A DNA stretch of 64,000 bases from NCBI RefSeq assembly GCF_000716785.1, contig NZ_JNYY01000016.1, positions 179,259-243,258 of the forward strand. The letters run 5' to 3'. Positions 25,225 to 48,357 of the stretch are shown in pieces (the first letter of the stretch is position 1; each line of letters opens with the position of its first letter). The position numbers and the translations under genes were made by a program. Source of the DNA: Amycolatopsis vancoresmycina (lineage in GTDB: Bacteria > Actinomycetota > Actinomycetes > Mycobacteriales > Pseudonocardiaceae). The notes beneath the pieces are model-generated. The model worked only from the letters and a program-made list of their open reading frames with translations. It was not told where the DNA came from and searched no databases.

Positions 25225-25694
25225 TCACGGGTTGAGCACGACGATCGCCGCGTTGAGCGCCGTGGCGAACAGGGTCCAGGCCAGGTACGGCAGCTGCAGC
25301 GCGGCGGCCGCCGCCGAGCGCCGCCGGAACACCACCAGCGTTCCGGCGACCACCACGTCGAGGACGACGATCTCCACCAGCGCCAGGGTGTACGCGCCGG
25401 CCGCGAAGAACAACGGCGTCCACGCCGCGTTGAGCACCAGCCCGGCCGCGTACCAGGCGAATTCGCGGCGGGTGCCCGAAGCGCGCCAGAACAACCAGCC
25501 CGACACCGCGATCAGCACGTACAGCACCGTCCACACCGGACCGAACAGCCAGGACGGCGGCGCCCAGCCCGGCTGCACGAGTCCGTTGTAGACAGTGCGG
25601 GACTGCGTCGCGGCCAGGCTGCCGACGACGGCCACCACGGCGACCGCGGCGAGGAAACCGGCCAGGGCCAGCGGGGACCGGGCGGATCGGGGCA
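25225..25694 (-). CDS. tspO: TspO/MBR tryptophan-rich sensory protein
   Basis: The ATG is at 25694 (MTTLPRSARSPLALAGFLAAV). It has five TM helices rich in Trp, Tyr and Pro (WAPPSWLFGPVWTVLYVLIAVSGW, LNAAWTPLFF), about 155 aa. Confidence 0.8.
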
Positions 25695-25700
25695 GCGTCG

Positions 25701-27168: not shown

Positions 27169-29157
27169 TCAGCCTTCGGTTCGCTGGGTGACGATCGTGG
27201 TCGGGGTCAGCTGCGCGGGCCGGCCGGCCATCGCCGCGGTCACCGCACCGACGCTGACGTCGAGCGCGAACGCCCAGCTGAACACCACGAGGATGTCGCC
27301 GAGTGTGCCGGTCCAGGCCGGTTCGAGCCAGCGGTAGGCGGCGAGCGACAGGACAACGGCGAGCACCGCGAAGCGCGCCAGGCCCACGGCCCAGCGAACG
27401 CCGGTGACGAGGACCTGACGCCGGCCCAGGGAGACCCGCGATCGCGCCACCGCGCGCCGCGCCGGGACGTGCAGCGCGGGCCGTGCCGGCGTCCCGGTGA
27501 AACCGGCGGCCGCCTCTGCGTCCGCTGACCGGCCGAGCTCGGTCACCCCCAGCTCCAGCAGTGCGGGAAGCTGAGCGGCGGCCGCGGAAAGGGGCAGGGA
27601 TCCGGCCAGCGCCGCGCGGACAGCGGCCGCGGCGGCCGCGCCCGGTGTGCGCTTGGCTTCCGGGAGGGCGGCGGCGAACACCTCGACGGCCTGCCCGAGC
27701 CGGTCGACGAGCTCGGCTTGCGCGTGCGCGGCGCCGTACGCGGCGGTCACCACAGCGGCGGACGAGGCGTCGGACGCGGGAGCGGTCAGCGCCGCCAGCT
27801 GACGAGCCCGGCCGGCGACCGGGCCGAACACGGGAGCGGGCCGGGCGGTGAGGACCTGCGCGAGCTGTCCTGCGCCCTCGGTGATTTCGTCCTGGTACTG
27901 GCGCGCGCTCCCGGCGATCAGGCCGACGTCCGTCTCGAGTTCGTCGAGCGCGGTCCGCGCACGGGAGAGGTTTCCGCGGTCCAGCAGCCCGTCGAGCTCG
28001 TCGAGGCGCTTCCGCGCCTTGGCCAGGAGGCCGGCCCACGGCACGGGTCCGGGCACCGGCCGATCCGGGCGCACCACCTTTTCGAGCTCGGGCAGGGCCG
28101 AGGCGACCTCCGCCAGTCCGGTGTCGAGTTCCTCGAGCGCGGTGTTGGCTCGGGTTTCGGCCTCGGTGACGAGGGTGTCCAGTTCTGCCGCCGGGCGCAG
28201 CAGCCACCGGCGGGACTTCGCGTCGAGGTCGGTGAGCAGGGCGCCGATTTCCCGGCGGAAGTGGTCGTCCTCCCGGCCGGCGGTCAGCTCTGCGAGCCGG
28301 GCGGCGAGCTCGGTGGCGCGGCCGGCGGCCGCGGCGCGGTCCTGCACGGCCACCAGGATCCGGCGGACGGACACCCCGGCGAACAGCCCCAGCAGGGCGA
28401 ACACCACGATCAGCGCCGGATCGCGCCGGGTGGTCACCCGGAACTGCACGGTCAGCGGCCGGGCCAGCTGCGCGGAGTCGAGCTGCACGGTGCGGGTCAC
28501 GGTCCCCAGCGGTGGCGTGCCGGTGATCCGGTACGGCAGCGTGAGCGCGGCCGGGCCGGTCACGGGCATGGCCGGGCCGGTGACCACGACCTGGTCGGCG
28601 CTGCTGTCCAGCCCGGTCACGAGGAGCTCGGTGATCCGCGTGTCGGGCCCGGCCCCGACGTGCAGTTCGGGCAGCTCCTCGCGGGTACCGCCGATGCCCC
28701 ACTCCGGGAACCACACGGTGCGCTTGACCTCGATCGCCGCCGTGGCCTGCAGATCGGCTCCTGGCCGCTTGAAGACGACGTCGACGAGTTCCGAACGCCC
28801 GCCGTCACCGACGGCGACCGTCGCCGTGTAGTCGCCGACGCGCTTCAGATCGTCGACGCGCACGTCGAAGCGCAGCGCCGGCACGGCGGGCTCGATCCGC
28901 ACGCCGATCGCCTGCATCGTCTCCGCCGGAACGGGCCTGCCGTCCCGCACGACCCGGACGACCCGGGCGGTGAGTCCCGTGACGGCGACCCCGGGTGCCG
29001 GGGTGAGCGGCAGCAGCACGACCGCATCGGCTTCGGCAGGCAGCGTCGCCGACGCCCCGGACGACAGCTCCACCAGGTCGTCCGCGCTCGCCGGGCCGGC
29101 CGCGAGCACCACGGCACCGATCGCGAACGCACCGGCGAGCAGGATCGACCGCCTCAT
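27169..29157 (-). CDS. Signal-peptide protein with an extracytoplasmic beta-rich domain, a TM helix, a long cytoplasmic coiled coil and two C-terminal TM helices (662 aa)
   Basis: The ATG at 29157 is preceded by GGAGG and overlaps the CHAT gene stop (ATGA). The signal peptide is MRRSILLAGAFAIGAVVLAAGPASA and the TM helix is ALIVVFALLGLFAGVSV. The coiled-coil region of about 330 aa is rich in Ala, Leu, Glu and Arg. The upstream part of the track ORF (to 29940) is junk. Confidence 0.6.
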   Translation of the reverse strand: MRRSILLAGAFAIGAVVLAAGPASADDLVELSSGASATLPAEADAVVLLPLTPAPGVAVTGLTARVVRVVRDGRPVPAETMQAIGVRIEPAVPALRFDVRVDDLKRVGDYTATVAVGDGGRSELVDVVFKRPGADLQATAAIEVKRTVWFPEWGIGGTREELPELHVGAGPDTRITELLVTGLDSSADQVVVTGPAMPVTGPAALTLPYRITGTPPLGTVTRTVQLDSAQLARPLTVQFRVTTRRDPALIVVFALLGLFAGVSVRRILVAVQDRAAAAGRATELAARLAELTAGREDDHFRREIGALLTDLDAKSRRWLLRPAAELDTLVTEAETRANTALEELDTGLAEVASALPELEKVVRPDRPVPGPVPWAGLLAKARKRLDELDGLLDRGNLSRARTALDELETDVGLIAGSARQYQDEITEGAGQLAQVLTARPAPVFGPVAGRARQLAALTAPASDASSAAVVTAAYGAAHAQAELVDRLGQAVEVFAAALPEAKRTPGAAAAAAVRAALAGSLPLSAAAAQLPALLELGVTELGRSADAEAAAGFTGTPARPALHVPARRAVARSRVSLGRRQVLVTGVRWAVGLARFAVLAVVLSLAAYRWLEPAWTGTLGDILVVFSWAFALDVSVGAVTAAMAGRPAQLTPTTIVTQRTEG

Positions 29158-31001
29158 GAGGCCTCCAGGACGACGTCGGCCGAGCCGAAGGCGACGAACG
29201 CCAGCGCCGGCACCTGTTTCTCCGCGAGGAGGTGCTGCCGGGCCGCCTGCATGGCCGCTCCGACGCTGGCCCCGCTCCCGGCGAGCGTGGCGACCAGGCA
29301 CCGGGCGAACTGGCGGGCGTGATCGGTCATGATCACGCATTCGGTCGCGACCACCCCGCTGGCCCCGACCGCGGTCAGCGCCGAGACGTGGTTGGTGAGG
29401 TTGCCGGGAAGCAGCACGCCCGAGCCGCAGGCCAGCAGCAGGATCAGCGGCGACGGCGCGGTCCACGACCCGGAGACGACCCGCTGTTCGGTGATCATCC
29501 GCGGGGTCAGCCGGATTTCGGCGGTGCCGCAGTCGATCTCCTGCGTGTCCGCGTCGTGGTGACCGAGGATGGTGACGACGGGCGCGCGGTCCCCCGGGTC
29601 CCACAGCAGGGACAGCAGCCGGTGTTCCTTCCCGAGTTTCCGCGGCGCACCGATCGCGGCCAGGTCCGAGACCAGGCCGGTCACCTCGGCGTCGACGACG
29701 CCCAGCGCGAGGTCGACCTTGAGCTTGCCGCGGTGGGGTACGAGGTGGCGGGCGAGGTCGCCGGACCCGTCGAGGCGTTCCTCGACCTGGTGGCGCACGC
29801 CCCAGAAGCCGCGGGCGCAGATCACCCGGCTTTCGCGGTGGTGGCCGCACCGCTTCCCCGAGCCGGGCGGGTCGAATCCCCAGCACACGGGTCCTTCCGG
29901 AGGGCCCGCCGGCAGGAGCCAGTCGTACAGCAGGGTCCACGGCACGGAGTGGTGCCGCTCCGCGCGGGTGATCTGGATGATCTCGTCGGATCGGAGGGTC
30001 AGCTCGCGAAGCGGCTCCCCCGCCGCACCGGGCAGTTCGCCGAACAGCGCCGCCCAGACCGCCCAGCCGCCCTCGGCGAGGGCGCGCAGGGCCGCGTCCG
30101 GCCCGAGCGTTCCCCGGGCCGCGTCCGTCATCGTGTCGCGCAGCGCGGGGAGGACCCTCGTCCGCACGTCGTCGTTCACCGGGAAGTGGAACACGGTTCC
30201 GGTGGACTTGACGAACACCCGGTGCCGGCCGTCACCGGCGTCCGCGTTGACGACCAGCGAAACGTACCGCGGCCGGAAGTCGGCCACATTGGCCCACGCC
30301 GTCGTCGCGGAGTACTCCAGCCGGGCCGCGGTCACCTCTTCGTCGAACCACTGCTCCCGTTCCCCGACCCGGGCGACCAGCCGGTAGGTCTGGATCAGGT
30401 TGTCCCGGTGCAGGACGTTGACCCGCACCCACGCCTCGCCGGGCTCGGCGGGTGCGCGCAGCTCGAAGACGACGGTCTCGGACGGCCCGGCCGGGGGCAG
30501 CCGCAGCGGCCGCACCGGCGGACCGTCCACGGTGAACCCGCCGGTGTAGATCACCACTTCCAGTTCGTGCCCCGACGCGGAATCCGGCAGCAGCGGGTCG
30601 ATGCCCGGTTGCGGCCCGCGTACCACCGACCACGGCGACCGGCCGCCGATCCGCGCGTCCAGCAGGTACTGCCCGCCTGCCTGCAGCGCGCACCGGTCGC
30701 CGACGAAGGGCGTCTTTTCGGCCGCCTCGATGCCGGCACCGCGGCGGAGGGTCAGGTCGAAGACCCGCGGCGGGTCCGGAAAGATGTACTTCCAATCGAA
30801 TTCGATTCTGTTGTACCGCGCCCGCGGGAAATCCCTCCGGAGCAGCACATCCGCGCTCAGCAGCCCGACGACCGCGGGCAGCGCAGCCAGCACCAGCAGC
30901 CACACGAGTTGCGCCCGGCCCGCTTCGACCAGGACGGCGGCAAGGACGAAGGCCAGCGTCGTCACGACAGCGACCAAGGCCTGCAGCCAGCGGATGCGCA
31001 C
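29154..31001 (-). CDS. Membrane-anchored CHAT-domain (caspase-like, clan CD) peptidase
   Basis: The N-terminus has 2 TM helices (LQALVAVVTTLAFVLAAVLV, LVWLLVLAALPAVVGLLSA). The C-terminal CHAT domain has a catalytic His in ILGHHDAD and a Cys in LILLLACGSGV. It is followed by the typical CHAT tail ALTAVGASGVVATECVIMTDHARQFARCLVATLAGSGASVGAAMQAARQHL. Confidence 0.75.
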   Translation of the reverse strand: MRIRWLQALVAVVTTLAFVLAAVLVEAGRAQLVWLLVLAALPAVVGLLSADVLLRRDFPRARYNRIEFDWKYIFPDPPRVFDLTLRRGAGIEAAEKTPFVGDRCALQAGGQYLLDARIGGRSPWSVVRGPQPGIDPLLPDSASGHELEVVIYTGGFTVDGPPVRPLRLPPAGPSETVVFELRAPAEPGEAWVRVNVLHRDNLIQTYRLVARVGEREQWFDEEVTAARLEYSATTAWANVADFRPRYVSLVVNADAGDGRHRVFVKSTGTVFHFPVNDDVRTRVLPALRDTMTDAARGTLGPDAALRALAEGGWAVWAALFGELPGAAGEPLRELTLRSDEIIQITRAERHHSVPWTLLYDWLLPAGPPEGPVCWGFDPPGSGKRCGHHRESRVICARGFWGVRHQVEERLDGSGDLARHLVPHRGKLKVDLALGVVDAEVTGLVSDLAAIGAPRKLGKEHRLLSLLWDPGDRAPVVTILGHHDADTQEIDCGTAEIRLTPRMITEQRVVSGSWTAPSPLILLLACGSGVLLPGNLTNHVSALTAVGASGVVATECVIMTDHARQFARCLVATLAGSGASVGAAMQAARQHLLAEKQVPALAFVAFGSADVVLEAS

Positions 31002-31103
31002 CGCTCCTCACCTCCCGCCACACGCGGTCACAAGGGTGAGTCGCGCGTGCGCCGGACGGCGTAACCGGGTCAGCCTCACACTTCGATCACGAAAGCGGCC
31101 GGC

Positions 31104-32897
31104 CTACTCCCCGGCCACGCCGTCCCCGTTCTCGATCGGCTTGGGCTGGTCCTGCCGGGGCAGCGTCTTGGTGCCGTCCCGCTGGGCTCCCCAGTCCTTG
31201 AGCACGTCCAGGATCTGCGCGGCCGGCATGACCCGGAGCAGGGCGTCGACGCTGTCGCTGCCGCCCCCGCCGCTGATGATCTGCGGGACCTGCGCCTTGG
31301 CGTACTGCGCCAGCACGCGCTCGACCCCGACGTACTCCGGCCCGAGCTGCTCGGCCAGCACCTTCACCTTGACGTACTTCAGCTTCTCGCGTTCCTCCTC
31401 GACCTTCACCCGCATCATCTCGATCTCGGCGAGCACCTTCTCGTTCTTCTTCTCCGCCTCGAGCTCGGCGAGCCGGGCGTTCGCCAGGGCGATCGCCTGT
31501 TCCTGCAGGGACACCCGCTTGCGGCGCTCGTTGATCTCCGGGTCGTCGCACTCGAACTCTTCGAGGTTCGTGCTCGTCGCGATGACCCCGATCGGGGCCA
31601 GCGCCTGCCGCACCTCACCCGTGAGGTCGTTGCAGAGCTCGTTGTACTTGGTGATGAAGTCGAGGATCGTCCGCTCGCCCGAAACCCGCCGGAAGTAACC
31701 GTCCACAGTGGACACCAGGACCTTCTCGACGAGCTGCTTCACGGTGGCCAGCCCGCCGATGTCCTTCGTCGTGCCGAACCGGAGGACCAGCTGCGGGGCC
31801 ACCTCCCGCGGGATCTGCACGGTCTGCTTCATGTCGAGGCGGACCGTGTGACCCTGCACGTTCAGCACGATCTGGTCGAGGGAGGCGTCCAGGTTGTCGT
31901 CGGACTTCTTGTGCTTCGACCACTCCAGGATCAGCTCGCGCGTCGGGATCCGGACGACGTGGGCGAACCAGGGGTTGAGGGAATAGCGCCCGGAGTCGTG
32001 CAGGGTCTCCTGCTGGACGCCCTTCCGGCCGCCGCCGGCCAGGAAGACCCACGGTTCCTGGAAGCTGTGGTGCCCGGGCACCGGCGGCGCCACCGACGAG
32101 CGGTTGCCGGGGCCTTCGACACCCACGTGCGTCACGACGACGCCGGTTTCGGCGACCTCGAGCTTGATGTCGCGCAGGTCCGCGAGGTCGATGCCCTCCC
32201 GCTCGGCCACTTCCGGCGTTTCGACGGTGATGACCTCGAACATCTCGGTGTTGATGTCGTAGTGGCCGCCGGTGAGGATCTGCTGCTGCGGCCCCTGTTC
32301 GCCACCGCCGGCGAGGAAGCTGACACCGTCCCGGAAGAAGTCGCACTCGACGTGCTTGGCCAGCTGGCTGCCGGGCGCCCGGATCCCGCCGACCTTGGCC
32401 TTGACGACGCCGATCGTCCCGTCCGGGACGCGGGTCCGCGGCACGGTGACGACGTCGAACAGCTCGGTGTTGATCTCGTAGGTGCCGCTGGTGAGGACCT
32501 GCTGCTGGGCCCCACGCTCGCCGCCGCCGGCGAGGAACGTGACGCCGTCCCGGAAGTCGTCGCACTCCACGTGTCTCGGCAGGGAGCCCTTCACCCGGCA
32601 GTTCCGGTCGACCTTGGCCTTGACGATGCCGACCATCCCGTCCGGCACGGTGACCCGCGGCACGGTCCGGACTTCGTGCAGGAAAGGCATCAGCCAGGTG
32701 CGGCTGTTGGACCGGAGCGTCCGTGCCTGGACGCCCCTTCCCCCGCCGACGCTCACCGCCGAGTCGTCGTCCCCCTCGGCCCGCCGGCCGAATTTCCGGA
32801 CGACGATCCCGACTTCCCCGGCGGGAACGGTGTGCAGCCCGGCCACCCCGAGGTACCCGGCGGCGGCGAGCAGCACGATGAGAACCACGAATTCCAC
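31104..32897 (-). CDS. SPFH/band-7 (flotillin/YqiK-like) membrane protein with three N-terminal repeats and a C-terminal coiled coil
   Basis: The GTG at 32897 is preceded by GGAG. It has an N-terminal TM helix (EFVVLIVLLAAAGYLGVAGL). There are three repeats of about 75 aa, each containing FLAGGGExGxQQQ. The coiled coil is rich in Glu, Ala and Lys (LQEQAIALANARLAELEAEKKNEKVLAEIEMMRVKVEEEREKLKYVKVKVLAEQ). The start lies 1 nt after the stop of the cyclase-like gene (TGAcGTG). Confidence 0.6.
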   Translation of the reverse strand: MEFVVLIVLLAAAGYLGVAGLHTVPAGEVGIVVRKFGRRAEGDDDSAVSVGGGRGVQARTLRSNSRTWLMPFLHEVRTVPRVTVPDGMVGIVKAKVDRNCRVKGSLPRHVECDDFRDGVTFLAGGGERGAQQQVLTSGTYEINTELFDVVTVPRTRVPDGTIGVVKAKVGGIRAPGSQLAKHVECDFFRDGVSFLAGGGEQGPQQQILTGGHYDINTEMFEVITVETPEVAEREGIDLADLRDIKLEVAETGVVVTHVGVEGPGNRSSVAPPVPGHHSFQEPWVFLAGGGRKGVQQETLHDSGRYSLNPWFAHVVRIPTRELILEWSKHKKSDDNLDASLDQIVLNVQGHTVRLDMKQTVQIPREVAPQLVLRFGTTKDIGGLATVKQLVEKVLVSTVDGYFRRVSGERTILDFITKYNELCNDLTGEVRQALAPIGVIATSTNLEEFECDDPEINERRKRVSLQEQAIALANARLAELEAEKKNEKVLAEIEMMRVKVEEEREKLKYVKVKVLAEQLGPEYVGVERVLAQYAKAQVPQIISGGGGSDSVDALLRVMPAAQILDVLKDWGAQRDGTKTLPRQDQPKPIENGDGVAGE

Positions 32898-32898
32898 G

Positions 32899-34080
32899 TC
32901 ACCACTCCGATTTCCGCAGCTGTCCGTGAACGGCCATGATCATGGACGCCCACTCGTCGTGCCATTCCGGATGTGTTTCGCGCTCCGGATTGCGCAATGT
33001 CGGGTAGAACGGCCCGCCCGCCTCCGCCCGCCGCGTGAACGCGGGATACGGGGGCGAAACCTCTTCCTGGTCCGCGCGCCAGCCGATCCGCACGCACACC
33101 TCGCGGAATTCGCGGCGCTTGGACAGTTCCAGGCCGGCCAGCCGCTGGTGCTGGGCGCGGAATCCCCAGGTGCCGCCGGAGGTGTCCGCCCACGCGGCGT
33201 CCAATTCGGTGATCAGCGCAAGCGGGAGCCGGGCGCCGTCCGACGCGCGCAGCCATCCGCTGCGGCCGCGGCCTGCCGCTTCGGCCAGCACCAGCGTGGT
33301 CACCGTGTCCGCGTGGTCGACTTCGCCGTCCTCGAGGAGTTTCCGGATCTGCCGCACCCGGTCCGTGAGCGCCGGATCCAGTCCGGGTTCGGGCTCCGGC
33401 GGCGGCGTCGCGGGCGGCGGCGACGTGCGTGCGGGCGCCGGCTCGGGCCGTTTCGGGAACGGGATCCGGAAGGGCTCGGCCCGGGTCTCGGGCGGCCGCG
33501 GCGGGAGCGCCGAAACCCCTGGTACGTGGAGGTATGCGGGTTCCCGGAATTCCTTGACCTCGATCCGGACCGGCCGGAACTGCCCGGGCCGCAGCCCACC
33601 GAGCCCCGATCCGACGACCTTCCGGTAAACCGGGCCGGAGATGATCTGCGCGAGGTGCGCGCGGGGATTCTCGTCCAGCGCGGCCCGCAGCGGCTTCGAG
33701 TCGAGCAAGCGGGCGGTGATGATCGAAGCCGGCCCGGCCCAGCCGAGCGGGCCGGCGGTCATGACATCGCTGTGCATGGCGACGCGCAGCCGGATCCGCA
33801 TTTCCGGTTCGTGATCTTCGTTGTGGTCCGCGAGCCGGATGTCCAGTTCGTTGACGAACCCGCGGACGACCGCGATCAAATCCACGTCGGGCGGCACCAT
33901 CGCCAGTTCGCCGTCGCCGCCGGGCTGCCGGTCCCACCGGTCCCGGCCGATTCCCGCGCTCTCCGCCGCCTCCCCCAGAATTCGATCGAGTTCCCGCTGC
34001 AGCACGACGTGCCTTCGGACGGGCCGGTCACTGTACTTCTGGATGTCGACTCCGAGCACGAAACGTTCGAAGAGAGACAC
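32899..34080 (-). CDS. Palm-domain nucleotidyl-cyclase-like protein (class III AC/GC-GGDEF superfamily) with a C-terminal domain of unknown function
   Basis: The GTG at 34080 is preceded by CAGGAGGT (VSLFERFVLGVDIQKYSDR). The metal-binding Asp residues are in GVDIQ and in QPGGDGELAMV, and the sequence IRLRVAMHSDVMTAGPLGWAGPASIITARLLDS matches the class III lrvGihtGpvvaGviG..y.v.GdtVNlAaRle pattern. The C-terminal domain of about 140 aa (GTWGFRAQHQRLAGLELSKRREFREVCVRIGW...WHDEW) is unassigned and may be GUN4-like. The longer track ORF (to 34647) has an Arg-rich junk leader. Confidence 0.55.
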   Translation of the reverse strand: MSLFERFVLGVDIQKYSDRPVRRHVVLQRELDRILGEAAESAGIGRDRWDRQPGGDGELAMVPPDVDLIAVVRGFVNELDIRLADHNEDHEPEMRIRLRVAMHSDVMTAGPLGWAGPASIITARLLDSKPLRAALDENPRAHLAQIISGPVYRKVVGSGLGGLRPGQFRPVRIEVKEFREPAYLHVPGVSALPPRPPETRAEPFRIPFPKRPEPAPARTSPPPATPPPEPEPGLDPALTDRVRQIRKLLEDGEVDHADTVTTLVLAEAAGRGRSGWLRASDGARLPLALITELDAAWADTSGGTWGFRAQHQRLAGLELSKRREFREVCVRIGWRADQEEVSPPYPAFTRRAEAGGPFYPTLRNPERETHPEWHDEWASMIMAVHGQLRKSEW

Positions 34081-34202
34081 GCAACCTCCTGCGCGGCGCC
34101 CCGACCGCTCGAACCGACGAGAGTGACCGGCCCGACAATACTCCCTTCGAATGCCGCTTCTGTGCCAGAAGGCACACAAGCAATAGTTTTTTTCCGCAAG
34201 CG

Positions 34203-34793
34203 TTACTCTTCCACGGCGCGGCCGGCGTTCGCGCGAAGAACGGGCATCGCCAGATCGTCGACGACGTGTTCGGCGAATCCCTCGTCCAGCGGCAGCCGCC
34301 ACAGCCACCGCATGAACATCACCGACGCGACGACCTCTTCGAACAGCCCGGCGTCGGCCGGGCCGGGCAGTTCCCCCCGTTCGACGGCCCGGCCGACCGC
34401 CTCCGCCGGGAGCCGCGCGCCGCTGGAGAACCGGGCCTCGAGCTCGTCGACGAGCTCCGGGTCGGCGGCGCGGGCCTGCACGAGGCCGACCGCGAGCCGG
34501 CCGTCGAACCCGGTGAGCACGTCGGCGAAGCGGCGGGTGTGGGCGAGCAGGTCGCCGCGGAACGTGCCGGTGTCGACGGTCCACTCGGTCTGCGTGCCGT
34601 GGTAGCGGGCCATGGCGGCGACGGTGATCTCCCGCTTGTTGCGCCACCGGCGGTAGATCGTGGCCTTCGACGTGCCCGACCGGGCGGCGACGGCGTCGAT
34701 CGTCATCGACACGTACCCGGCCTCGGCCAGCAGCTCCAGCACGGCGTCGAGGATGCGGGCGTCCCGGGTGGGATCCAGGGGGCGAACACTCAT
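34203..34793 (-). CDS. TetR-family transcriptional regulator
   Basis: The HTH is ILDAVLELLAEAGYVSMTIDAVAARSGTSKATIYRRWRNKREI. It is divergent from the ADH gene. Confidence 0.8.
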   Translation of the reverse strand: MSVRPLDPTRDARILDAVLELLAEAGYVSMTIDAVAARSGTSKATIYRRWRNKREITVAAMARYHGTQTEWTVDTGTFRGDLLAHTRRFADVLTGFDGRLAVGLVQARAADPELVDELEARFSSGARLPAEAVGRAVERGELPGPADAGLFEEVVASVMFMRWLWRLPLDEGFAEHVVDDLAMPVLRANAGRAVEE

Positions 34794-34886
34794 GCCGTGA
34801 GCATATCAGTGCACTTCACAGCGCTGAACAGTACGAAACCGTTTCGTACTGTAGGGTCGACGGCGACTCCGAGAGGAAGGGACACC

Positions 34887-35906
34887 ATGACCGTCACCTC
34901 CTACGCGGCGCACTCCGCGGGCACCCGCCTCGAACCGTACGGCCGCGAGCCCGGCCCGCTCGGCGCGCTGGAAGCCGACGTCCGCGTGACGCACTGCGGC
35001 GTCTGCCACAGCGACATCGGCCAGATCGACGACGAGTACGGCATCACCCGCTACCCCTGCGTCGCCGGCCACGAAGCCGTCGGCGTGGTCGAAGCCGCCG
35101 GCAGCGCGGTCGACACCGAGCTGCTCCCGATCGGCACCCGGGTCGGCGTCGGCGCGATCGCCGGGGCCTGCTTCCGCTGCGCCTTCTGCCTCAGCGGCCG
35201 GCACAACCTCTGCCCGCAGCGCGACGACACCGTCATGCGCGGCGACGGCGGCGCCTTCACCGAGCTGCTCCGCGTCTCCGACTGGCGCACCGCCTACCCC
35301 ATCCCGGACGCCATCCCTTCCGCACAGGCGGCTCCGCTGATGTGCGCCGGTGTCACCGTGTTCGCGCCGCTGCTGCGCCACGGTGTCCGGCCGGTCGACC
35401 GGGTGGCCGTCGCCGGGGTCGGCGGGCTCGGCCACCTGGCCCTGCAGTTCCTGGCCCGGTGGGGTTGCGACGTCACCGCCATTTCGCGGTCACGGTCCAA
35501 AGAGGACGAAGCCCGCTCGTTCGGCGCGACCTCGTTCATCGCCACGGGCGAAGAAGGCGCTCTCGAGGCCGCGGCCGGAACGTTCGACTTCGTCCTCTCG
35601 ACGGTGTCGGCCGACCTGCCGTGGGACGCCTACCTGGACCTCCTGGTCCCCCAGGGCAGGCTGAGCATCGTCGGCGTCCCGCCGGAGAAGATCGCGGTGC
35701 ACCCGATGAGCCTGCTCCCGGCCGAGAAAACCGTTTCCGGGGGCGTTCCGGCCTCCCCGGCGGAAACCAGGCTGATGCTGGACTTCGCCGCCCGCCACGG
35801 AATCGGCCCGCAGGTGGAGCTGTTTCCCGTGGCCGAAATCAACGACGCGATCGACACCGTCCGGGCCGGCCGGGCCCGCTACCGCGCGGTGCTGACCCTC
35901 GTTTGA
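34887..35906 (+). CDS. Zinc-dependent NAD(P)-alcohol dehydrogenase (MDR superfamily, cinnamyl-ADH-like)
   Basis: The ATG at 34887 is preceded by GAGAGGAAGGGA. It has the catalytic Zn motif GVCHSDIGQIDDEYG, the structural Zn motif CxxCxxC (CFRCAFCLSGRHNLC), and a Rossmann motif VAVAGVGGLGHLALQFL. Confidence 0.85.
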   Translation: MTVTSYAAHSAGTRLEPYGREPGPLGALEADVRVTHCGVCHSDIGQIDDEYGITRYPCVAGHEAVGVVEAAGSAVDTELLPIGTRVGVGAIAGACFRCAFCLSGRHNLCPQRDDTVMRGDGGAFTELLRVSDWRTAYPIPDAIPSAQAAPLMCAGVTVFAPLLRHGVRPVDRVAVAGVGGLGHLALQFLARWGCDVTAISRSRSKEDEARSFGATSFIATGEEGALEAAAGTFDFVLSTVSADLPWDAYLDLLVPQGRLSIVGVPPEKIAVHPMSLLPAEKTVSGGVPASPAETRLMLDFAARHGIGPQVELFPVAEINDAIDTVRAGRARYRAVLTLV

Positions 35907-35912
35907 CGCGGG

Positions 35913-38885
35913 TCACGGCAGCAGATCGGGACAGATCTGCCTCGTCAGGGCGAGCAGATCCGCCTTTTCCTCGATCTCCGGGCCGTCGGCGCGCAGCAGT
36001 TCCCGCACCGTGCGGTCCACCATCGACGGCGGCAGCCGGTCGCGCAGGATCCGGAGCTGGTTCAGGAAGAGCACGCGGAACCGCCGGCGCGTTTCGTGGT
36101 CGTAGGGCGCGAAACCGTGCACGGCGTGTTTCAGGCAGGGGAAATACGCGGCCGCCAGCTCGTCGGCACCGGCTCCGCTCCCGGACTTGAGCCAGAGGGT
36201 GATCAGCGCGTTCGCGGGCGAAAGGGGTCGCGCGTCGCCGAAGCCGTAGAACGTGGTGATCATGTTCCCGTAGCCGTCCGCGAACGGCGCCAGTGCGTGG
36301 ACCGCGGTGTCGCCTTCGACGCTGCACAGGAACTCGATCTCCGACGCGAGCGTGTCGAAGGAGAACCGGATCCACCCGCGGTAGCTGTCCTCCCCGATCG
36401 GCTCGGCGTTCGGCTGGAACCGGTAGGACCAGTAGAGGTCGATGTCCGGCTCCGGGGCCTCGGACCGGGCCGCCCCGTTCGTGACCCGGACGACTCTCCT
36501 GCCGTCCTGCCGGCCGCGGAACAGCGTCAGCGCCTCGACGAGTCCGTGCCGTCCTTCGGCGGACAGCTGGGCGGCCCACAGCGTCGCGGTCTTCGTCCAC
36601 TCCCGGACGGGATGCTCGACATCGGGGAAGAGCTGGTCGGTCGTGACCTCGAACGGCGGTCCTGTGACCAGCAGCAGGCACAGGTTCGCGGAATACCGGG
36701 CACAGCGCGCGGGCACCAGGACCCGGTCCGGCCGGTAGCCGGAAAGGGTGGAGTCCCTCGGCAGCAGCGCGGCGCGGAACAGCGTCAGGAGGGTGTCGTA
36801 CACCGGGCGGAAGCGCGGCGCCGCCAGCTCGGCCACGATACTGCCGATGAAGGCGGGCACGGTCTTCCGGTCCGTGAGCGAGGCGAACGACAGCAACGCG
36901 TGGAAGAAGTCGTCGTTGTCGCGCCGCCCTTCGGCGAGGGCCAGCAGTTCCCGCACGGTGAGCCGGGCGATGAGGTACTCGCCGAACGTCGGGTGCATGA
37001 ACTCGTACGTCCGCAGGCGGAGGTGCTCGTCCTTGCGGGCCTGCGCGGTGTGGATGAAGTAGAAACTGCTGATCACCACCCTGGCACTGGCCTCCCCCAC
37101 CGGCAGCGCGGCGAGATCGGCGTCGAGCTCCGCCGCGGTGACCCACTGCCGGCCGCGGTTGAACATGGCGAACGCCGCGACCGACAGCCGGACCAGCTCC
37201 CCTTCGACCAGCCGCGTCACCTCCTCGTCGGGCTCGTCCGCGTGCTGCTTGAGCACCTCCCGCCGCGCGAACCCGGTCAGCAGGCCCTCGTAAAGCTGCA
37301 CCTGCCCGATGGCGTCCCCGTGCTCCGCGAGCGGGCACTCGGTGCGGTCGTAGATCGCCAGGAGCAGGAGCAGCAGGGGCTGGCGGGCCAGCTCGGCGTG
37401 CGGCCGCAGGACGTCGACGGTGAGCGCCGTGCCGTTGAGGCGGCGCCACGGGCCCAGCCACTGCTCGATCTGCTCGTCGTCGAACGGTTCGAGCAGCAGG
37501 CTGACCATTCCGCCGACCGGCCGGGCCCGGTCGGCCACCGACACGCGGCTGGTGACGATCACGACGACCGGGTGCTGCAGATCGGCCTCCCGCTGCTGGA
37601 ACCGGGCCAGCCGCTCGAGGAAGTCGGACTGGCTCGTGTTCGTCGCCTGCAGGAGTTCGTCGAACCCGTCGAGCAGGATCACGGGCACCGCGTCACCCGC
37701 CGAGCGGGCGACCTCGCGCCAGGGCAGCTGCTCCCCGGTCGAGATGCGGAGCCCCTGCTCGATCTGGGTCTGCACGTCGCTGTCGGCGGAAACCTCGCGC
37801 AACGGGACCGGAACGGCCAGGAAGTCGCCGGCCGGCAGCCGCGCCGCGAGCACTTTCGCCAGCATCGACTTCCCCGACCCCGGCTGGCCGAGGACGACGA
37901 GGGGCGCCTCGGTGGCCGACGGCGACGTCAGGTGCCCGATCAGGAACTCCTGCAGGTCGGTGCGGACGGGCTGGCCGTCCCACCACCCTTCGTCGGCGAT
38001 GTTTTCGTTCCCCACCTCGGCGGCGACCCGGAAGCGGGGGTTCACGTAGGCCTCGGCGACGGTGGGCAACCGGATGCCGGCCGGGGTCGCCGGCAGCAGC
38101 GGCCGGGACAGCACCGCCTCGTGGAACCGCGCCAGCCTCGCCCGCCGGTCGTCGGGGGTCCGCCCGGACGCGATTTCCGACAGCACCCGGGTGACCCCCG
38201 CCAGGCCGGCCCGCAAGCGGCGGAGCTCGGCCGTGACCGCCTGGTGGTCGGCCCGGCCCGCCCAGAAGGCGACCTCGGGGAAATCGCCGGCCAGGCGCCG
38301 GAACATGTCCTCGTACGTCGTGACCGCCTTGGCCGTGGCTTCGCCGAGCACCGCCGTTTCGGTGGCCCGCCTGCCCCGCTCGTCCAAGCGGTCCCACCCG
38401 GCCAGCCCGGTGAGGAATTCCAGCACCTCGCCCGCCATCCGGGTGTAGTGGCCGGCCAGGGCTTCGATCGTCTGCTCGTAGGACCGGTGCGGCGCCAGCA
38501 CGGGCGCCGGTGTGCGCAGCAGTGCGGTGGTGAACCGGTCCGGCGGGGTGAGCCCGAGGCCGGCGAGGTCGAAGGGCAGGCGAACCGACGCCACGGCGTC
38601 GAAGAACGCCGCCACCACGATGACGCTGTGCGCGGCGGACAGCTGTTCGCCGCGTTCCACCCGGCTGCTGCCGCGCAGCCGTGTGCTCAGCCGGGACACC
38701 AGTTCGCCGGTCAGCCGGCAGAATCCGGACTCCGCGTCGAACAGGCTCACCGCGACCGCGGACCCGGTGGCGGACAACGCGAACAGGGCACCGCCGGTCA
38801 GCTGGTCGAGGGCGGTCACCACCTTGTTCGGTGCCCCGCCACTCAGCACCAGCACGGCGTCCGCGTAGCTCATAGCCCTCGACAT
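35913..38885 (-). CDS. NACHT-family STAND NTPase (bacterial NLR-like) with an N-terminal helical domain of about 340 aa and a C-terminal helical sensor-like region of about 500 aa
   Basis: The ATG at 38885 is preceded by GGAGGTGG (MSRAMSYADAVLVL). It has Walker A VVLGQPGSGKSMLAKVL, Walker B VILLDGFDELL and the downstream IVTSR. I see no TPR or WD40 repeats. The track ORF start at 39047 adds 54 improbable residues. Confidence 0.8.
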   Translation of the reverse strand: MSRAMSYADAVLVLSGGAPNKVVTALDQLTGGALFALSATGSAVAVSLFDAESGFCRLTGELVSRLSTRLRGSSRVERGEQLSAAHSVIVVAAFFDAVASVRLPFDLAGLGLTPPDRFTTALLRTPAPVLAPHRSYEQTIEALAGHYTRMAGEVLEFLTGLAGWDRLDERGRRATETAVLGEATAKAVTTYEDMFRRLAGDFPEVAFWAGRADHQAVTAELRRLRAGLAGVTRVLSEIASGRTPDDRRARLARFHEAVLSRPLLPATPAGIRLPTVAEAYVNPRFRVAAEVGNENIADEGWWDGQPVRTDLQEFLIGHLTSPSATEAPLVVLGQPGSGKSMLAKVLAARLPAGDFLAVPVPLREVSADSDVQTQIEQGLRISTGEQLPWREVARSAGDAVPVILLDGFDELLQATNTSQSDFLERLARFQQREADLQHPVVVIVTSRVSVADRARPVGGMVSLLLEPFDDEQIEQWLGPWRRLNGTALTVDVLRPHAELARQPLLLLLLAIYDRTECPLAEHGDAIGQVQLYEGLLTGFARREVLKQHADEPDEEVTRLVEGELVRLSVAAFAMFNRGRQWVTAAELDADLAALPVGEASARVVISSFYFIHTAQARKDEHLRLRTYEFMHPTFGEYLIARLTVRELLALAEGRRDNDDFFHALLSFASLTDRKTVPAFIGSIVAELAAPRFRPVYDTLLTLFRAALLPRDSTLSGYRPDRVLVPARCARYSANLCLLLVTGPPFEVTTDQLFPDVEHPVREWTKTATLWAAQLSAEGRHGLVEALTLFRGRQDGRRVVRVTNGAARSEAPEPDIDLYWSYRFQPNAEPIGEDSYRGWIRFSFDTLASEIEFLCSVEGDTAVHALAPFADGYGNMITTFYGFGDARPLSPANALITLWLKSGSGAGADELAAAYFPCLKHAVHGFAPYDHETRRRFRVLFLNQLRILRDRLPPSMVDRTVRELLRADGPEIEEKADLLALTRQICPDLLP

Positions 38886-39021
38886 CCCGCCACCTCCACC
38901 CGGTAGTCGGCGGGACACGGGGCGGTGTTGCGGTATTGCGGCTTCCGGTCCGGCGGGGGTTCCCGCATTACCCCCTTGACGCGCGCCGCCACCCGGTACG
39001 GTGCGCTCGCAGGAGGTACGC

Positions 39022-40029
39022 ATGCCCTCGATCCGCGACGTCGCCAAGCAGGCTCAGGTCTCCACGGCCACGGCTTCCCGGGCCCTGCGCGGGCTTCCCG
39101 CGGTGACCGCCGAGACGCGGGCGCGAGTCGAACGCGTGGCCGCCGAACTCGGTTACGTCATCCCGTTCAACGCCTCGAGCCTCGCTTCGGGCCGGACCAA
39201 TTCCGTCGGGATCGTGGTGCCGTTCGTCTCCCGGTGGTTCTTCGGCACGGTGGTCGCGGGTGCGGAGACCGTGCTGCGCGAAGCCGGCCTGGACCTCGTC
39301 GTGTACGGGGTGCCGGGCGCGCCGAGCCGGGAACGGTTCTTCGCCGAGCTGCCGGTGCGGCGGCGGGTCGACGCGGTCCTCGTGCTGTGCCTGCCGCTGA
39401 CCCGGTGCGAGGCCGACGCCCTGCTGGCGCTCCGGATCCCGGTGGTCCTCGTCGGCAGCACCGCCGACGGCATCTCGTCGGTGCGCATCGACGACGTCGC
39501 CTCCTCGGCCCGGGCGGTGCGGCACCTGGTCGAGCTCGGGCACCGCCGGATCGGGCTGCTCGGGGAAAGCGACCCGCCGCCCCACGGGTTCACCACGCCC
39601 GGCCTGCGCCGCAACGGCTACCTCCGGGTCCTGGCCGAAGCGGGCATCGAACCCGACCCGGACCTGGAGGTGGCCGGCCGGTTCACCGCCACCGAAGGCG
39701 AAGCCGCGATGGCCCGCCTGCTCGCCCGGCGGAACCCGCCGAGCGCGGTGTTCGCGATGTCCGACGAGATGGCGTTCGGCGCGCTGCAGGCCCTGCGCCG
39801 GGCCCGGGTCGACGTCCCCGGCGGCATGTCGGTCATCGGCTTCGACGACCACGAGCTGGCGGCCGCCCTCGACCTTTCGACGATCGCGCAACCGGTCTTC
39901 GCCCAGGGGGAACGCGCGGCCGGGCTCCTGCTCGACCAGCTGCGGCGGCAGGCCCCGCCCGCGGACGTCGTGCTCCCGACCGAGCTGGTCCGCCGGGGCA
40001 CCACCGGACCGGCGGCCGCGCTGAACTGA
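39022..40029 (+). CDS. LacI-family transcriptional regulator
   Basis: The ATG at 39022 is preceded by AGGAGG. The HTH is SIRDVAKQAQVSTATASRALRG and a periplasmic-binding-protein-like sugar-binding core follows. Confidence 0.85.
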   Translation: MPSIRDVAKQAQVSTATASRALRGLPAVTAETRARVERVAAELGYVIPFNASSLASGRTNSVGIVVPFVSRWFFGTVVAGAETVLREAGLDLVVYGVPGAPSRERFFAELPVRRRVDAVLVLCLPLTRCEADALLALRIPVVLVGSTADGISSVRIDDVASSARAVRHLVELGHRRIGLLGESDPPPHGFTTPGLRRNGYLRVLAEAGIEPDPDLEVAGRFTATEGEAAMARLLARRNPPSAVFAMSDEMAFGALQALRRARVDVPGGMSVIGFDDHELAAALDLSTIAQPVFAQGERAAGLLLDQLRRQAPPADVVLPTELVRRGTTGPAAALN

Positions 40030-40035
40030 CCGCCG

Positions 40036-40485
40036 TCAGCGCTCTTCCGCCACCCGCCGGCGGGACCACGCGCCGGCGTCGGTGGTGTAGCGGACGAGGA
40101 GCCGCGCGAACTGGAGGCGTTCCTCCGGCGGCCAGCCGGCAGTGATCTCTTCGAACACCGCGCGCTGCTCGGCGGCGAACCGCGTCCGCTCGGCCTCGCC
40201 GCGTTCGGTCAGCTCGAGCACGGTCCGGCGGCCGTCGGCCTGGGACGCCGCCCGCCGCAGCAGGCCGTCGGCGATGCAGGCCGCGACCGTGCGGCTGGCC
40301 ACCGGCTGCACGACGCCCATCTCCGCGGCCAGCCCGCCGACCGTCAGCTCGCCCGGGGCGTCGGCGACCACGTTCAGCACCAGGTTCCGGGACAGGTCGC
40401 GGCTCGAGGCCGGGGTGCGCCGGCGCAGCCGGGACAGGGCCGGGCCGACCTGGTCCAGCAGCGGGTCTTCGGCGGAACTGGTCAC
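40036..40485 (-). CDS. MarR-family transcriptional regulator
   Basis: It has a winged-helix core (LTVGGLAAEMGVVQPVASRTVAACIADGLLRRAASQADGRRTVLELTERG). It is divergent from the amidohydrolase gene. Confidence 0.75.
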   Translation of the reverse strand: MTSSAEDPLLDQVGPALSRLRRRTPASSRDLSRNLVLNVVADAPGELTVGGLAAEMGVVQPVASRTVAACIADGLLRRAASQADGRRTVLELTERGEAERTRFAAEQRAVFEEITAGWPPEERLQFARLLVRYTTDAGAWSRRRVAEER

Positions 40486-47986: not shown

Positions 47987-48357
47987 GTCCCGGTGCCCTC
48001 GGTACGGCGGAAGACCAGCTTCACTCCCCCCTTGATTTCGCTGGAGAAGGACCCGACGAGCCGGACTTCGCCCTTCGCGGTGAGGTCCAGGTTCACCTCG
48101 AAGGCATCGAGCCCGAACGCTTCCGATGCCTCCCCGGCCCGCCGGAAGGCGTTGGCCAGCCGCGAGCAGACGGCCGACAGGTTCCGCGCCAGCTCTTCCG
48201 AGTCCAGTTCACCGATCCGCCCCGCGACCTGGCGCGCGGTCGAGAACAGGCCCTTCTCACCGTCGACGCCCGGATCCACCCACACGATCGGGATGCCGGC
48301 TCCGCTCACCGCCGTCACTGCCTCGCCCTCGCCTTCGTCCGACGCACCAGCTTGCAC
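47983..48357 (-). CDS. Small Trypco2-like (CU044_2847-like) protein, about 110-124 aa, start uncertain
   Basis: Its stop overlaps the start of the caspase-Hsp70 gene (ATGA). The C-terminal pattern LDAFEVNLDLTAKGEVRLVGSFSSEIKGGVKLVFRRTEG resembles trypsin-co-occurring domain 2 proteins. Start candidates are the GTG at 48357 and an internal GTG 13 codons in. Confidence 0.45.
   Translation of the reverse strand: MQAGASDEGEGEAVTAVSGAGIPIVWVDPGVDGEKGLFSTARQVAGRIGELDSEELARNLSAVCSRLANAFRRAGEASEAFGLDAFEVNLDLTAKGEVRLVGSFSSEIKGGVKLVFRRTEGTGT

Follow-up and report, generated by a model that had tools for sequence, protein, structure and literature searches.

A locus of Amycolatopsis vancoresmycina that appears to place side by side two autonomous two-gene membrane modules, a cyclase-GUN4/SPFH pair and a CHAT protease/membrane partner pair

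Systems related in concept to the locus described here come from the survey of Kaur, Burroughs, Iyer and Aravind (2020, eLife 9:e52696, PMC7159879), which reported that in actinobacterial conflict proteins a cyclic nucleoside monophosphate (cNMP) cyclase is often coupled to a Band-7 domain. The same study described a two-gene membrane system, "System 4", composed of an EACC1 membrane protein and a caspase or cyclase protein, noted a lack of catalytic activity for many of the cyclase domains of conflict proteins, and found the GUN4 domain, a tetrapyrrole-binding fold, to be confined to cyanobacteria in conflict systems. SPFH proteins organise membrane microdomains in actinobacteria (PMC11920096), and the transmembrane anti-sigma factor DdvA of Myxococcus xanthus carries a CHAT domain (PMC11506125). 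Here we analysed a stretch of 64,000 nucleotides from Amycolatopsis vancoresmycina (contig NZ_JNYY01000016.1, positions 179,259 to 243,258 of the forward strand), termed the window, which contains four consecutive genes, G1 to G4, for a cyclase-fold protein, an SPFH protein, a CHAT (caspase-like) protease and a membrane protein. A first-pass annotation, made by a model from the sequence and its open reading frames (ORFs), had proposed that the four genes form one system. We reached a different reading, which we hold with moderate confidence: two membrane modules that are autonomous and have not been described so far, each consisting of two genes (G1-G2 and G3-G4), have come to lie head to tail in one lineage.

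Co-conservation of the four genes was analysed by tblastn, with the four proteins as queries and all fetched loci as targets, and by all-against-all clustering of the ORFs of 17 loci. Both approaches identified G3 and G4 as the only genes common across genera. A CHAT gene followed by a G4 gene was found in 16 of 19 distinct loci, usually with overlapping stop and start codons, and the CHAT proteins of the three loci without this order belong to the most divergent relatives. The pair is present in several phyla (Georgenia, Actinoplanes, Dactylosporangium, Demequina, Bryobacterales, Paludibaculum, a metagenome-assembled genome (MAG) of Pseudomonadota, and metagenomic contigs), and in the other genera these loci carry neither G1 nor G2. 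As for the first two genes, a G2 homologue directly follows the GUN4-fused G1 homologue in all 10 loci for which downstream sequence was available, and no CHAT or G4 gene was detected in six of these; in Saccharothrix ecbatanensis (locus L020), A. xylanica (L080) and a Streptosporangiaceae MAG (L081), unrelated genes follow G1 and G2. Many Amycolatopsis genomes lack the G1-G2 pair. The only places where all four genes adjoin one another are the window, two identical metagenomic contigs (L001/L002) and Amycolatopsis sp. NPDC004625 (L008), with 77-93% protein identity and 88-91% nucleotide identity over the whole region, which indicates a single evolutionary event. The outcome of the search for conserved neighbourhoods suggested by the first-pass annotation is two autonomous pairs and not a co-occurrence of SPFH, CHAT and cyclase genes. 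By the refuting condition set in that annotation, the idea of one co-conserved four-gene system is not supported, since the pairs occur alone elsewhere and the four-gene linkage is limited to close relatives, and the proposed chain from a cyclic nucleotide via a flotillin-scaffolded CHAT protease to cleavage of G4 found no comparative support as a four-part chain. Its step from CHAT to G4 remains plausible.

A conserved third gene near G3-G4 was also considered and rejected. Neither clustering nor Pfam analysis of 79 neighbouring proteins and of the immediately upstream genes revealed one, and the neighbours of the pair in other genomes share nothing, being inconsistent in kind (GGDEF proteins in three loci, assorted kinases and peptidases). 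The gene G5 (SDR/DUF1731) and the TspO gene of the window were likewise rejected as operon members, because they are syntenic only in close relatives.

The order of four consecutive minus-strand genes (Table 1) is backed by analysis of G+C content at third codon positions (GC3) and by the ORF list. The overall G+C content of the window is 72%, and a protein search confirmed its origin, the G1 and G3 products being 100% identical to A. vancoresmycina proteins. Both G1 and G3 start with GTG, the former with AGGAGG upstream and the latter with GGGAGGTGAGGAG, an AGGAGG-type ribosome-binding site. At the G1/G2 junction, which reads TGAcGTG, the G1 stop codon TGA (32901-32899) and the G2 start codon GTG (32897-32895) are separated by one base; the motif had been recognised correctly in the first-pass annotation, and its span, 32895-32901, is wider than the 32897-32901 given there. 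A gap of 102 nucleotides (31002-31103) lies between G2 and G3, and the stop codon of G3 overlaps with the start codon of G4 in ATGA (29154-29157). GC3, ORFs and the reading of the junctions thus bear out the tight coupling of the four genes. In homologous loci, G1 and G2 are separated by 1 nucleotide (L020) or 4 nucleotides (L081) or overlap by 13 nucleotides (L080), and the 4-nucleotide overlap of G3 and G4 recurs in L001, L003, L006 and L083 as well as, from ORF coordinates, in L012 and L017, with a 1-nucleotide overlap in L005. As tight coupling is kept in homologous loci, it is no chance feature. Hydropathy analysis predicted transmembrane segments in G2 (one), G3 (two, N-terminal) and G4, and none in G1.

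Homologues of G3 are rare: a search of 5.8 billion proteins yielded seven, and 12 further loci came from scanning species-representative genomes. In the family alignment of 17 sequences, His481 and Cys525 (within LLLAC-x-SG) are invariant. The profile built from these 17 sequences matches the TPR-CHAT protease Csx29 of Craspase (8d9h) at E=2.7e-5 and also separase, and in the Csx29 alignment GH falls on the catalytic CH and LLLAC on GAC; a profile of six sequences retrieved no CHAT entry from the PDB. The Pfam CHAT model matches seven of the 17 family members (best 1.7e-8), with P0006 and P0007 just above the gathering score, and it does not match G3 of the window even at E<=10; NCBIfam and PADLOC gave no match for this protein either. 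In the structure model, the predicted local distance difference test score (pLDDT) is 63-83 over residues ~420-600, where His481 and Cys525 end the strands 475-480 and 519-525. The top Foldseek matches were Craspase TPR-CHAT, separase, SAVED-CHAT (root-mean-square deviation 4.0 over 209 columns) and DdvA (8rw5, 8rot), so that the caspase-haemoglobinase fold is recovered by Foldseek in a region whose model confidence is only 63-83. The invariance of the dyad, the Csx29 profile alignment and Foldseek together uphold the initial description of the third protein as a CHAT protease with an intact His/Cys dyad.

Two further properties set G3 apart. Upstream of the catalytic core, C373, C385 and C395 are invariant and H387 is nearly invariant among the 17 homologues; this region, which is of low confidence in the model, may form a metal site. 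Moreover, the two N-terminal transmembrane helices occur only in the short G3 forms of the Amycolatopsis type. The other homologues are soluble proteins of ~800-1000 amino acids, and most of those examined share an N-terminal domain of ~350 amino acids without known fold. We considered whether the membrane anchor might be an adaptation to the SPFH neighbour and rejected this idea on the basis of locus L082, in which a gene for a transmembrane-anchored short G3 is followed by G4 and preceded by an unrelated gene that does not encode an SPFH protein. According to the predicted topology, the CHAT domain of G3 would face the cytoplasm.

The segments of G4 (Table 1) were derived from an alignment of 13 homologues and from hydropathy. 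Its signal-peptide-like start is followed by an extracytoplasmic region of ~215 residues that ends in the conserved sequence PLGT...PQL...TTRR, the amphipathic helices behind the first transmembrane helix form an apolipoprotein-like region of ~310 residues, and the C-terminal hydrophobic helices bear a conserved GT...F-x2-D motif. The earlier label, a coiled-coil membrane protein, was right in that G4 is a helical membrane protein and incomplete in that the signal-peptide-like start and the ~215 residues of the beta-rich domain outside the membrane had been missed. An exhaustive profile search detected 703 representatives of the G4 family at E<=1e-3 and 437 at E<=1e-10, mostly of full length, and among 139 full-length representatives the middle transmembrane helix was predicted in 96% and a C-terminal one in 94%. 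When G4 profiles were compared with the PDB, only lipid-associating helical proteins were obtained (ApoA-IV at 1.4e-9, ApoA-I/E, TIP47, colicin Ia and Cry6Aa). No Pfam domain was found in G4 or in 10 relatives, G4 had no NCBIfam or PADLOC match, and PADLOC runs on longer or more typical relatives were also empty. The G4 family is large yet undescribed.

The search for G1 homologues returned 103 proteins, and an alignment of 69 sequences was used for conservation, profile and structure model. The N-terminal ~190 residues of G1 gave no sequence match, and a PDB sequence search with this domain alone was empty. The AlphaFold model calculated from the 69-sequence alignment has a pLDDT of 91 and contains the palm fold (beta-alpha-beta-beta-alpha-beta) of the class III cyclase homology domain. 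In a Foldseek search of the PDB with the N-terminal domain, the top 50 matches were all catalytic domains of adenylyl or guanylyl cyclases (E~5e-7, TM(target) scores 0.6-0.77), the best one being Ma1120. Model and Foldseek thus agree with the nucleotidyl-cyclase palm fold that had initially been assigned to the first protein. The two metal-binding Asp positions correspond to D12, conserved in at least 90% of the 69 sequences, and D56 in the motif GGDGE, which is invariant; they were placed by motif and predicted secondary structure, not by superposed coordinates. R99, R124 and K176 are also invariant or nearly so, and H103 is conserved. In a weak profile alignment R99 and H103 (LRVAMH) fall on LRIGIH of the atrial natriuretic peptide (ANP) receptor cyclase, and by their placement R99 would be the phosphate Arg, R124 the Arg of helix alpha4 and K176 the Lys between beta7 and beta8. 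Of the alpha4 Asn/Arg pair (G-x3-N-x3-R), only the Arg is present (R124, invariant). Alignments of the G1 profile with cyclases of the PDB were marginal (E~0.5-1.2), and PADLOC gave no match for the G1 cyclase domain. The structure model supports the view that G1 is a class III cyclase at the fold level, with a catalytic set that is mostly intact and non-canonical and from which we infer activity.

The C-terminal part of G1, missed in the first-pass annotation, is a GUN4-like domain. The Pfam model GUN4 (PF05419) matches amino acids 242-349 (E=1.2e-11; 45.4 bits, cut-off 29.2) and detects 46 of the 69 family members, and the family profile matches the GUN4 structures 1z3x and 1y6i at 3e-8 to 3e-7 and also 7e2r. 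Some homologues of G1 (P0059, P0088, P0105, P0106 and P0109) combine these parts in other architectures: SEFIR/TIR occurs together with a region homologous to G1 (~82% of G1), TIR is fused to GUN4 in Actinomadura, and a protein of 483 amino acids with a cNMP-binding domain matches part of G1. These variant architectures suggest a shuffling of modules of the kind that is typical for conflict systems.

The assignment of the second protein to the SPFH family was confirmed by Pfam, in which Band_7 (PF01145) matches amino acids 293-483 of G2 (E=5e-14; 53.1 bits, cut-off 23.6). Hydropathy placed the transmembrane helix of G2 at amino acids 1-25, a C-terminal Glu/Lys-rich helical stretch was seen by eye, and a PDB sequence search revealed no close solved structure. 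Owing to an internal tandem duplication (Table 1), the G2 protein shows three copies of FLAGGG-x2-G-x-QQ-x-L with a unit of ~70 amino acids. The copy number varies among homologues; the Saccharothrix protein is 68 amino acids shorter, as seen from a double alignment of tblastn to L020.

Stand-alone G1-like cyclases of ~250 amino acids form a sister group to the GUN4-fused G1. In 24 loci they adjoin a Crp-like cNMP-binding regulator, and commonly three conserved genes then follow, one of which encodes a DUF4407 protein. On two Streptomyces linear plasmids (L084 and L085, Table 1) the stand-alone cyclase is flanked by a Crp/Fnr protein and by a protein annotated in RefSeq as "Pycsar system effector family protein". 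This plasmid context ties the G1-related cyclase clade to antiphage-type cyclic-mononucleotide signalling. In L084 a TPR protein of 1750 amino acids then follows, and insertion sequences and an N-6 DNA methylase gene are located near the plasmid cyclases. A cassette in L021 (7147-14047) consists of genes for a Crp-like cNMP-binding regulator, the ~250-amino acid cyclase, proteins of ~777 and ~546 amino acids and a DUF4407 protein; cassettes of this type are also present in L030, L033, L048, L053, L061, L064 and L071-L073, from actinobacteria and soil metagenomes. For the ~777- and ~546-amino acid proteins there is no recorded Pfam hit, and neither NCBIfam nor PADLOC gave a match; the cassette looks like an undescribed cyclic-nucleotide system.

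The genes around the CHAT+G4 pair in other genomes gave some additional observations. In L003 (1249-9580) the pair is flanked by ISL3 elements on both sides, and in L004 an rve_3 integrase gene lies upstream and ISL3 downstream; these transposase flanks hint at mobility of the pair. In both loci it is preceded by a divergent gene for a CYTH-domain protein (CyaB/thiamine-triphosphatase family). L013 contains a gene for a second TPR-CHAT protein (967 amino acids) in convergent orientation just downstream of the pair. A phage-tail-sheath-like gene (2016-3686, minus strand), belonging to a contractile injection system or a prophage, is located ~5 kb upstream of the pair in Georgenia sp. H159 (L009).

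In the window itself, a strain-specific insertion lies outside both modules and marks the upstream boundary of G1. In the relatives L008 and L001, which are without the insertion, a MarR gene directly precedes G1. The NACHT-NNH7 gene of the insertion, which encodes a bacterial NLR-like protein, is 1.8 kb upstream of G1, and together with a caspase-Hsp70 fusion gene farther upstream it gives the surroundings some conflict-gene flavour. TspO, whose gene lies downstream of G4, is a tetrapyrrole-binding membrane protein. As no TspO gene is found near G1-G2 in L020, L080 and L081, its proximity to the gene for the GUN4 protein is probably coincidental.

Table 1. Positions of the genes, domains and neighbouring features in the window and of the related plasmid loci (aa, amino acids)
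Feature	Position	Strand	Description
G1	32899-34080	-	393 aa, soluble; divergent class III cyclase-fold domain, Pro-rich linker and GUN4
G1 cyclase-homology domain	33526-34080	-	aa 1-185; Foldseek, conservation
G1 GUN4-like helical domain	32905-33375	-	aa 236-392; Pfam GUN4, solved-structure matches
G2	31104-32897	-	597 aa, SPFH/Band_7 (flotillin-like); N-terminal transmembrane helix, internal repeats, C-terminal Glu/Lys-rich helical region
Tandem duplication in G2	32224-32666	-	~222 nucleotides; off-register blastn matches, window against L008/L001
G3	29154-31001	-	615 aa, CHAT (caspase-like) protease; two N-terminal transmembrane helices
G3 Cys/His cluster	29790-29885	-	C373, C385, H387, C395, then GFWGxRHxVEE; 17-homologue alignment
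G3 CHAT catalytic core	29184-29744	-	aa ~420-606; His481 codon 29559-29561, Cys525 codon 29427-29429
G4	27169-29157	-	662 aa, membrane protein; signal-peptide-like N-terminus
G4 N-terminal segments			Signal-peptide-like aa 1-25; extracytoplasmic beta-rich ~26-245; first transmembrane helix 247-270 (conserved G257)
G4 further segments			Amphipathic helical, cytoplasmic ~271-580; two C-terminal transmembrane helices 582-642 (conserved G617, F630, D633)
Strain-specific insertion	34197-40041		5.85 kb, directly upstream of G1; blastn breakpoints against L008 and L001
TetR gene (insertion)	34203-34793	-	
Zinc-dependent alcohol dehydrogenase gene (insertion)	34881-35906	+	
NACHT gene (insertion)	35913-39047	-	1044 aa, NNH7 N-terminal domain
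LacI-type regulator gene (insertion)	38980-40029	+	
Caspase-Hsp70 fusion	45677-48208	-	843 aa; Peptidase_C14 4.7e-20 and Hsp70-type ATPase 3.2e-50; 11.6 kb upstream of G1
TspO/MBR gene	~25225-25700	-	Same strand, 1.5 kb downstream of G4
Plasmid locus L084	5399-13008		NZ_CP107897.1
Plasmid locus L085	4637-7346		NZ_CP108260.1

Gene structure, domain and fold assignments, conserved catalytic residues and the independent conservation of each pair are established by these data; enzymatic activity, ligand, protease substrate, biological role and any crosstalk of the two modules in Amycolatopsis are what we infer from them, and the following working model is meant in this sense. Module A (G1+G2) would consist of a soluble cyclase-GUN4 protein and a membrane-anchored SPFH scaffold translated right after it, and a ligand bound to GUN4 would gate the synthesis of a cyclic mononucleotide by the dimeric cyclase at an SPFH membrane assembly. 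Module B (G3+G4) would combine the cytoplasm-facing CHAT protease with a co-translated trans-membrane partner, G4 acting as an envelope-side sensor and as substrate or regulator of G3. Upon a trigger, CHAT might cleave the cytoplasmic helical region of G4 or be released by G4, with the result that membrane integrity is changed or a signal is relayed; this logic would follow that of Craspase-Csx30 and of protease-gasdermin pairs. The two modules have the features of accessory genes for conflict or stress and not those of core genes, as indicated by their patchy distribution, their variable neighbours and the location of cyclase relatives beside annotated Pycsar effectors.

Several observations weigh against this reading or against parts of it. 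For module B, a G4 profile search with a word prefilter gave three usable homologues, too few for a structure model; the apolipoprotein-like matches of G4 may be purely compositional; a plasmid search with G4 found no matches; the G3 model has a poor overall pLDDT of 52; and the role of G4 as protease substrate is drawn by analogy only. More generally, PADLOC has no model for any component, and the neighbourhoods of G3-G4 and G1-G2 elsewhere are mostly metabolic and not defence islands. The latter two points would suit a role in normal physiology, with module A as a tetrapyrrole- or haem-responsive second-messenger module and module B as a device for envelope-sensing regulated proteolysis. Such a role would also be in line with the tetrapyrrole-binding fold of GUN4 (PMC7159879), with the function of SPFH proteins in actinobacterial microdomains (PMC11920096), with the TspO gene at a distance of 1.5 kb from G4, and with the fact that CHAT domains can be regulatory, as in the anti-sigma factor DdvA among the fold matches of G3. 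We consider it improbable. The occurrence of both pairs is patchy: G3 has only the seven matches in the large protein search and is spread across unrelated phyla, and G1-G2 is missing from many genomes of the genus. Insertion sequences flanking CHAT+G4 in L003 and L004, sister-clade cyclases beside annotated Pycsar effectors on plasmids, and the lack of TspO near G1-G2 in L020, L080 and L081 also speak against it. For module A, the position of the canonical transition-state Asn on alpha4 is occupied by Ile120 in G1 and by Val in the family consensus, the position of the base-specifying Lys is Gln52, the Pfam model Guanylate_cyc matches none of the 69 family members at E<=0.1, and the four genes include no cyclic-nucleotide receptor, Pfam having detected no cNMP-binding domain in G2-G4. 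The cyclase domain of G1 could hence, as far as its sequence tells, be inactive or form an unexpected product. In the extreme case G1 would be a pseudo-enzyme, whose cyclase fold does no more than bind a nucleotide, or provides the SPFH protein with a unit for dimerisation or an adaptor, without making a second messenger, and inactive cyclase domains are indeed common in conflict proteins (PMC7159879). We doubt this, because the retention of D12, D56, R99, R124 and K176 across 69 diverged sequences is hard to explain without catalysis, and members of the sister clade adjoin cNMP-binding Crp/Fnr proteins and annotated Pycsar effectors.

Another alternative to two autonomous modules is an integrated four-component system, in which the cyclase-GUN4 protein would supply a nucleotide signal at an SPFH platform, the platform would recruit or activate the membrane-anchored CHAT protease, and the protease would cleave G4. 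The location of all genes on the same strand, their tight spacing (1 nucleotide, 102 nucleotides and a 4-nucleotide overlap) and the preservation of the arrangement in three related loci are in agreement with it, as is the recurrent cyclase/Band-7 coupling in actinobacterial conflict proteins (PMC7159879). In addition, the G3 protein of this lineage has exchanged the soluble N-terminal domain of ~350 amino acids for two transmembrane helices, which would bring it to the same membrane as G2. Nevertheless, we judge integration unlikely. The four loci, being 88-91% identical in nucleotide sequence, represent one event and provide little evidence of selection for linkage, either pair exists autonomously in other genomes, and Pfam scans detected no nucleotide-binding domain in G2, G3 or G4. 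The membrane anchor is independent of an SPFH neighbour, as L082 has transmembrane-anchored G3 and G4 without SPFH upstream. A more elaborate version, to which we give a slim chance, regards CHAT+G4 as a widespread trans-envelope caspase-like system that in Amycolatopsis has been wired to the Pycsar-related cyclase-GUN4/SPFH pair to form a four-part membrane immunity complex. In this version the outside domain of G4 would sense an event at the cell surface, e.g., phage adsorption or wall damage, the membrane core with its conserved Gly and Asp residues would switch on the cytoplasmic caspase-like protease, and the protease would convert the apolipoprotein-like helical domain of G4 into a membrane-disrupting or signalling form.

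If the inferences underlying the two-module reading hold, the locus adds two uncharacterised pairs built from parts of immunity and cell death systems, namely a caspase-like protease, a cyclic-nucleotide synthase and a flotillin-type scaffold, and it is best handled as two modules and not as one. The CHAT+G4 pair is the stronger lead, as its partner family comprises several hundred diverged representatives and the members tested have no Pfam or PADLOC model. The topology of G4, with a domain outside and an amphipathic domain inside, suggests outside-to-inside control of a caspase-like protease, a mode of which no description exists so far among CHAT systems of bacteria. The cyclase-GUN4+SPFH pair would, if its reading is true, extend the role of GUN4 beyond the conflict systems of cyanobacteria and tie membrane scaffolds to a cyclase clade that is related to Pycsar.

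No described system with the composition found here is known to us, in agreement with the first-pass annotation: literature searches for SPFH or CHAT membrane defence systems of this kind yielded none, and neither module matched a PADLOC or NCBIfam model. With Pycsar and class III cyclases G1 shares the fold, both metal-binding Asp residues and the Arg/Arg/Lys set of phosphate and transition-state residues, and its stand-alone relatives adjoin annotated Pycsar effectors and Crp/Fnr cNMP-binding regulators. Unlike these enzymes, it has no match to Guanylate_cyc or to the PADLOC models, including any Pycsar cyclase models there, and other residues stand at the positions of the canonical Asn and of the base-specifying Lys. 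It also carries a fused GUN4 domain, and its partner is an SPFH protein instead of a cNMP-binding transmembrane or TIR effector; Pfam scans confirmed the earlier statement that the four genes contain no cyclic-nucleotide-binding (CNB), SAVED or TIR domain. With no PADLOC cyclase match and no cNMP-binding domain in G2-G4, the locus is set apart from Pycsar, and it is set apart from CBASS by the G1 fold, which is that of a class III cyclase and not of a CD-NTase, and by the absence of PADLOC matches. The systems of Kaur et al. (PMC7159879) are similar in being actinobacteria-centred and in combining a membrane-proximal caspase-superfamily peptidase or cNMP cyclase with a membrane partner. In their cyclase/Band-7 proteins, however, both domains are part of one giant vWA component of MoxR-vWA ternary systems, whereas here they are encoded by two small genes without vWA or MoxR. 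The comparison with System 4, made by its description in that paper, shows a small single-transmembrane EACC1 protein encoded 5' of the caspase gene, in contrast to a multi-domain partner of ~660-770 amino acids encoded 3', and an N-terminal caspase domain, in contrast to the C-terminal CHAT domain of G3.

The analogy to SPFH-NfeD pairs drawn in the first-pass annotation, and likewise that to HflK/C-FtsH, is limited to the fact that in the window the SPFH gene adjoins the gene for a membrane-anchored protease. It does not extend further: there is no NfeD or FtsH, Pfam detected no NfeD domain in any neighbouring product, the adjacency of SPFH and CHAT is limited to one lineage, and the conserved partner of the SPFH gene is the upstream cyclase-GUN4 gene. 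DdvA resembles G3 as a membrane-anchored CHAT protein and is found among its fold matches (8rw5, 8rot), but no anti-sigma domain or ECF sigma (extracytoplasmic function) partner was found for G3, and most members of the G3 family are soluble. A further parallel to G3 is provided by Craspase (Csx29-Csx30), SAVED-CHAT and gasdermin-protease pairs, in which a CHAT-fold His/Cys protease is encoded beside a dedicated partner, and the logic of these pairs, in which proteolysis activates a partner that is membrane-active or regulatory, could also apply to G3 and G4. In contrast to them, the locus contains no Cas7-11, SAVED, TPR or gasdermin domain (for gasdermin, G4 and 10 relatives gave no Pfam domain at all), G4 is already inserted in the membrane and has an extracytoplasmic domain, and G3 is distinguished by its unique conserved Cys/His cluster and, outside Amycolatopsis, by the N-terminal domain of ~350 amino acids. 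Both pairs thus appear to be undescribed variants of protease-based and cyclase-based modules.

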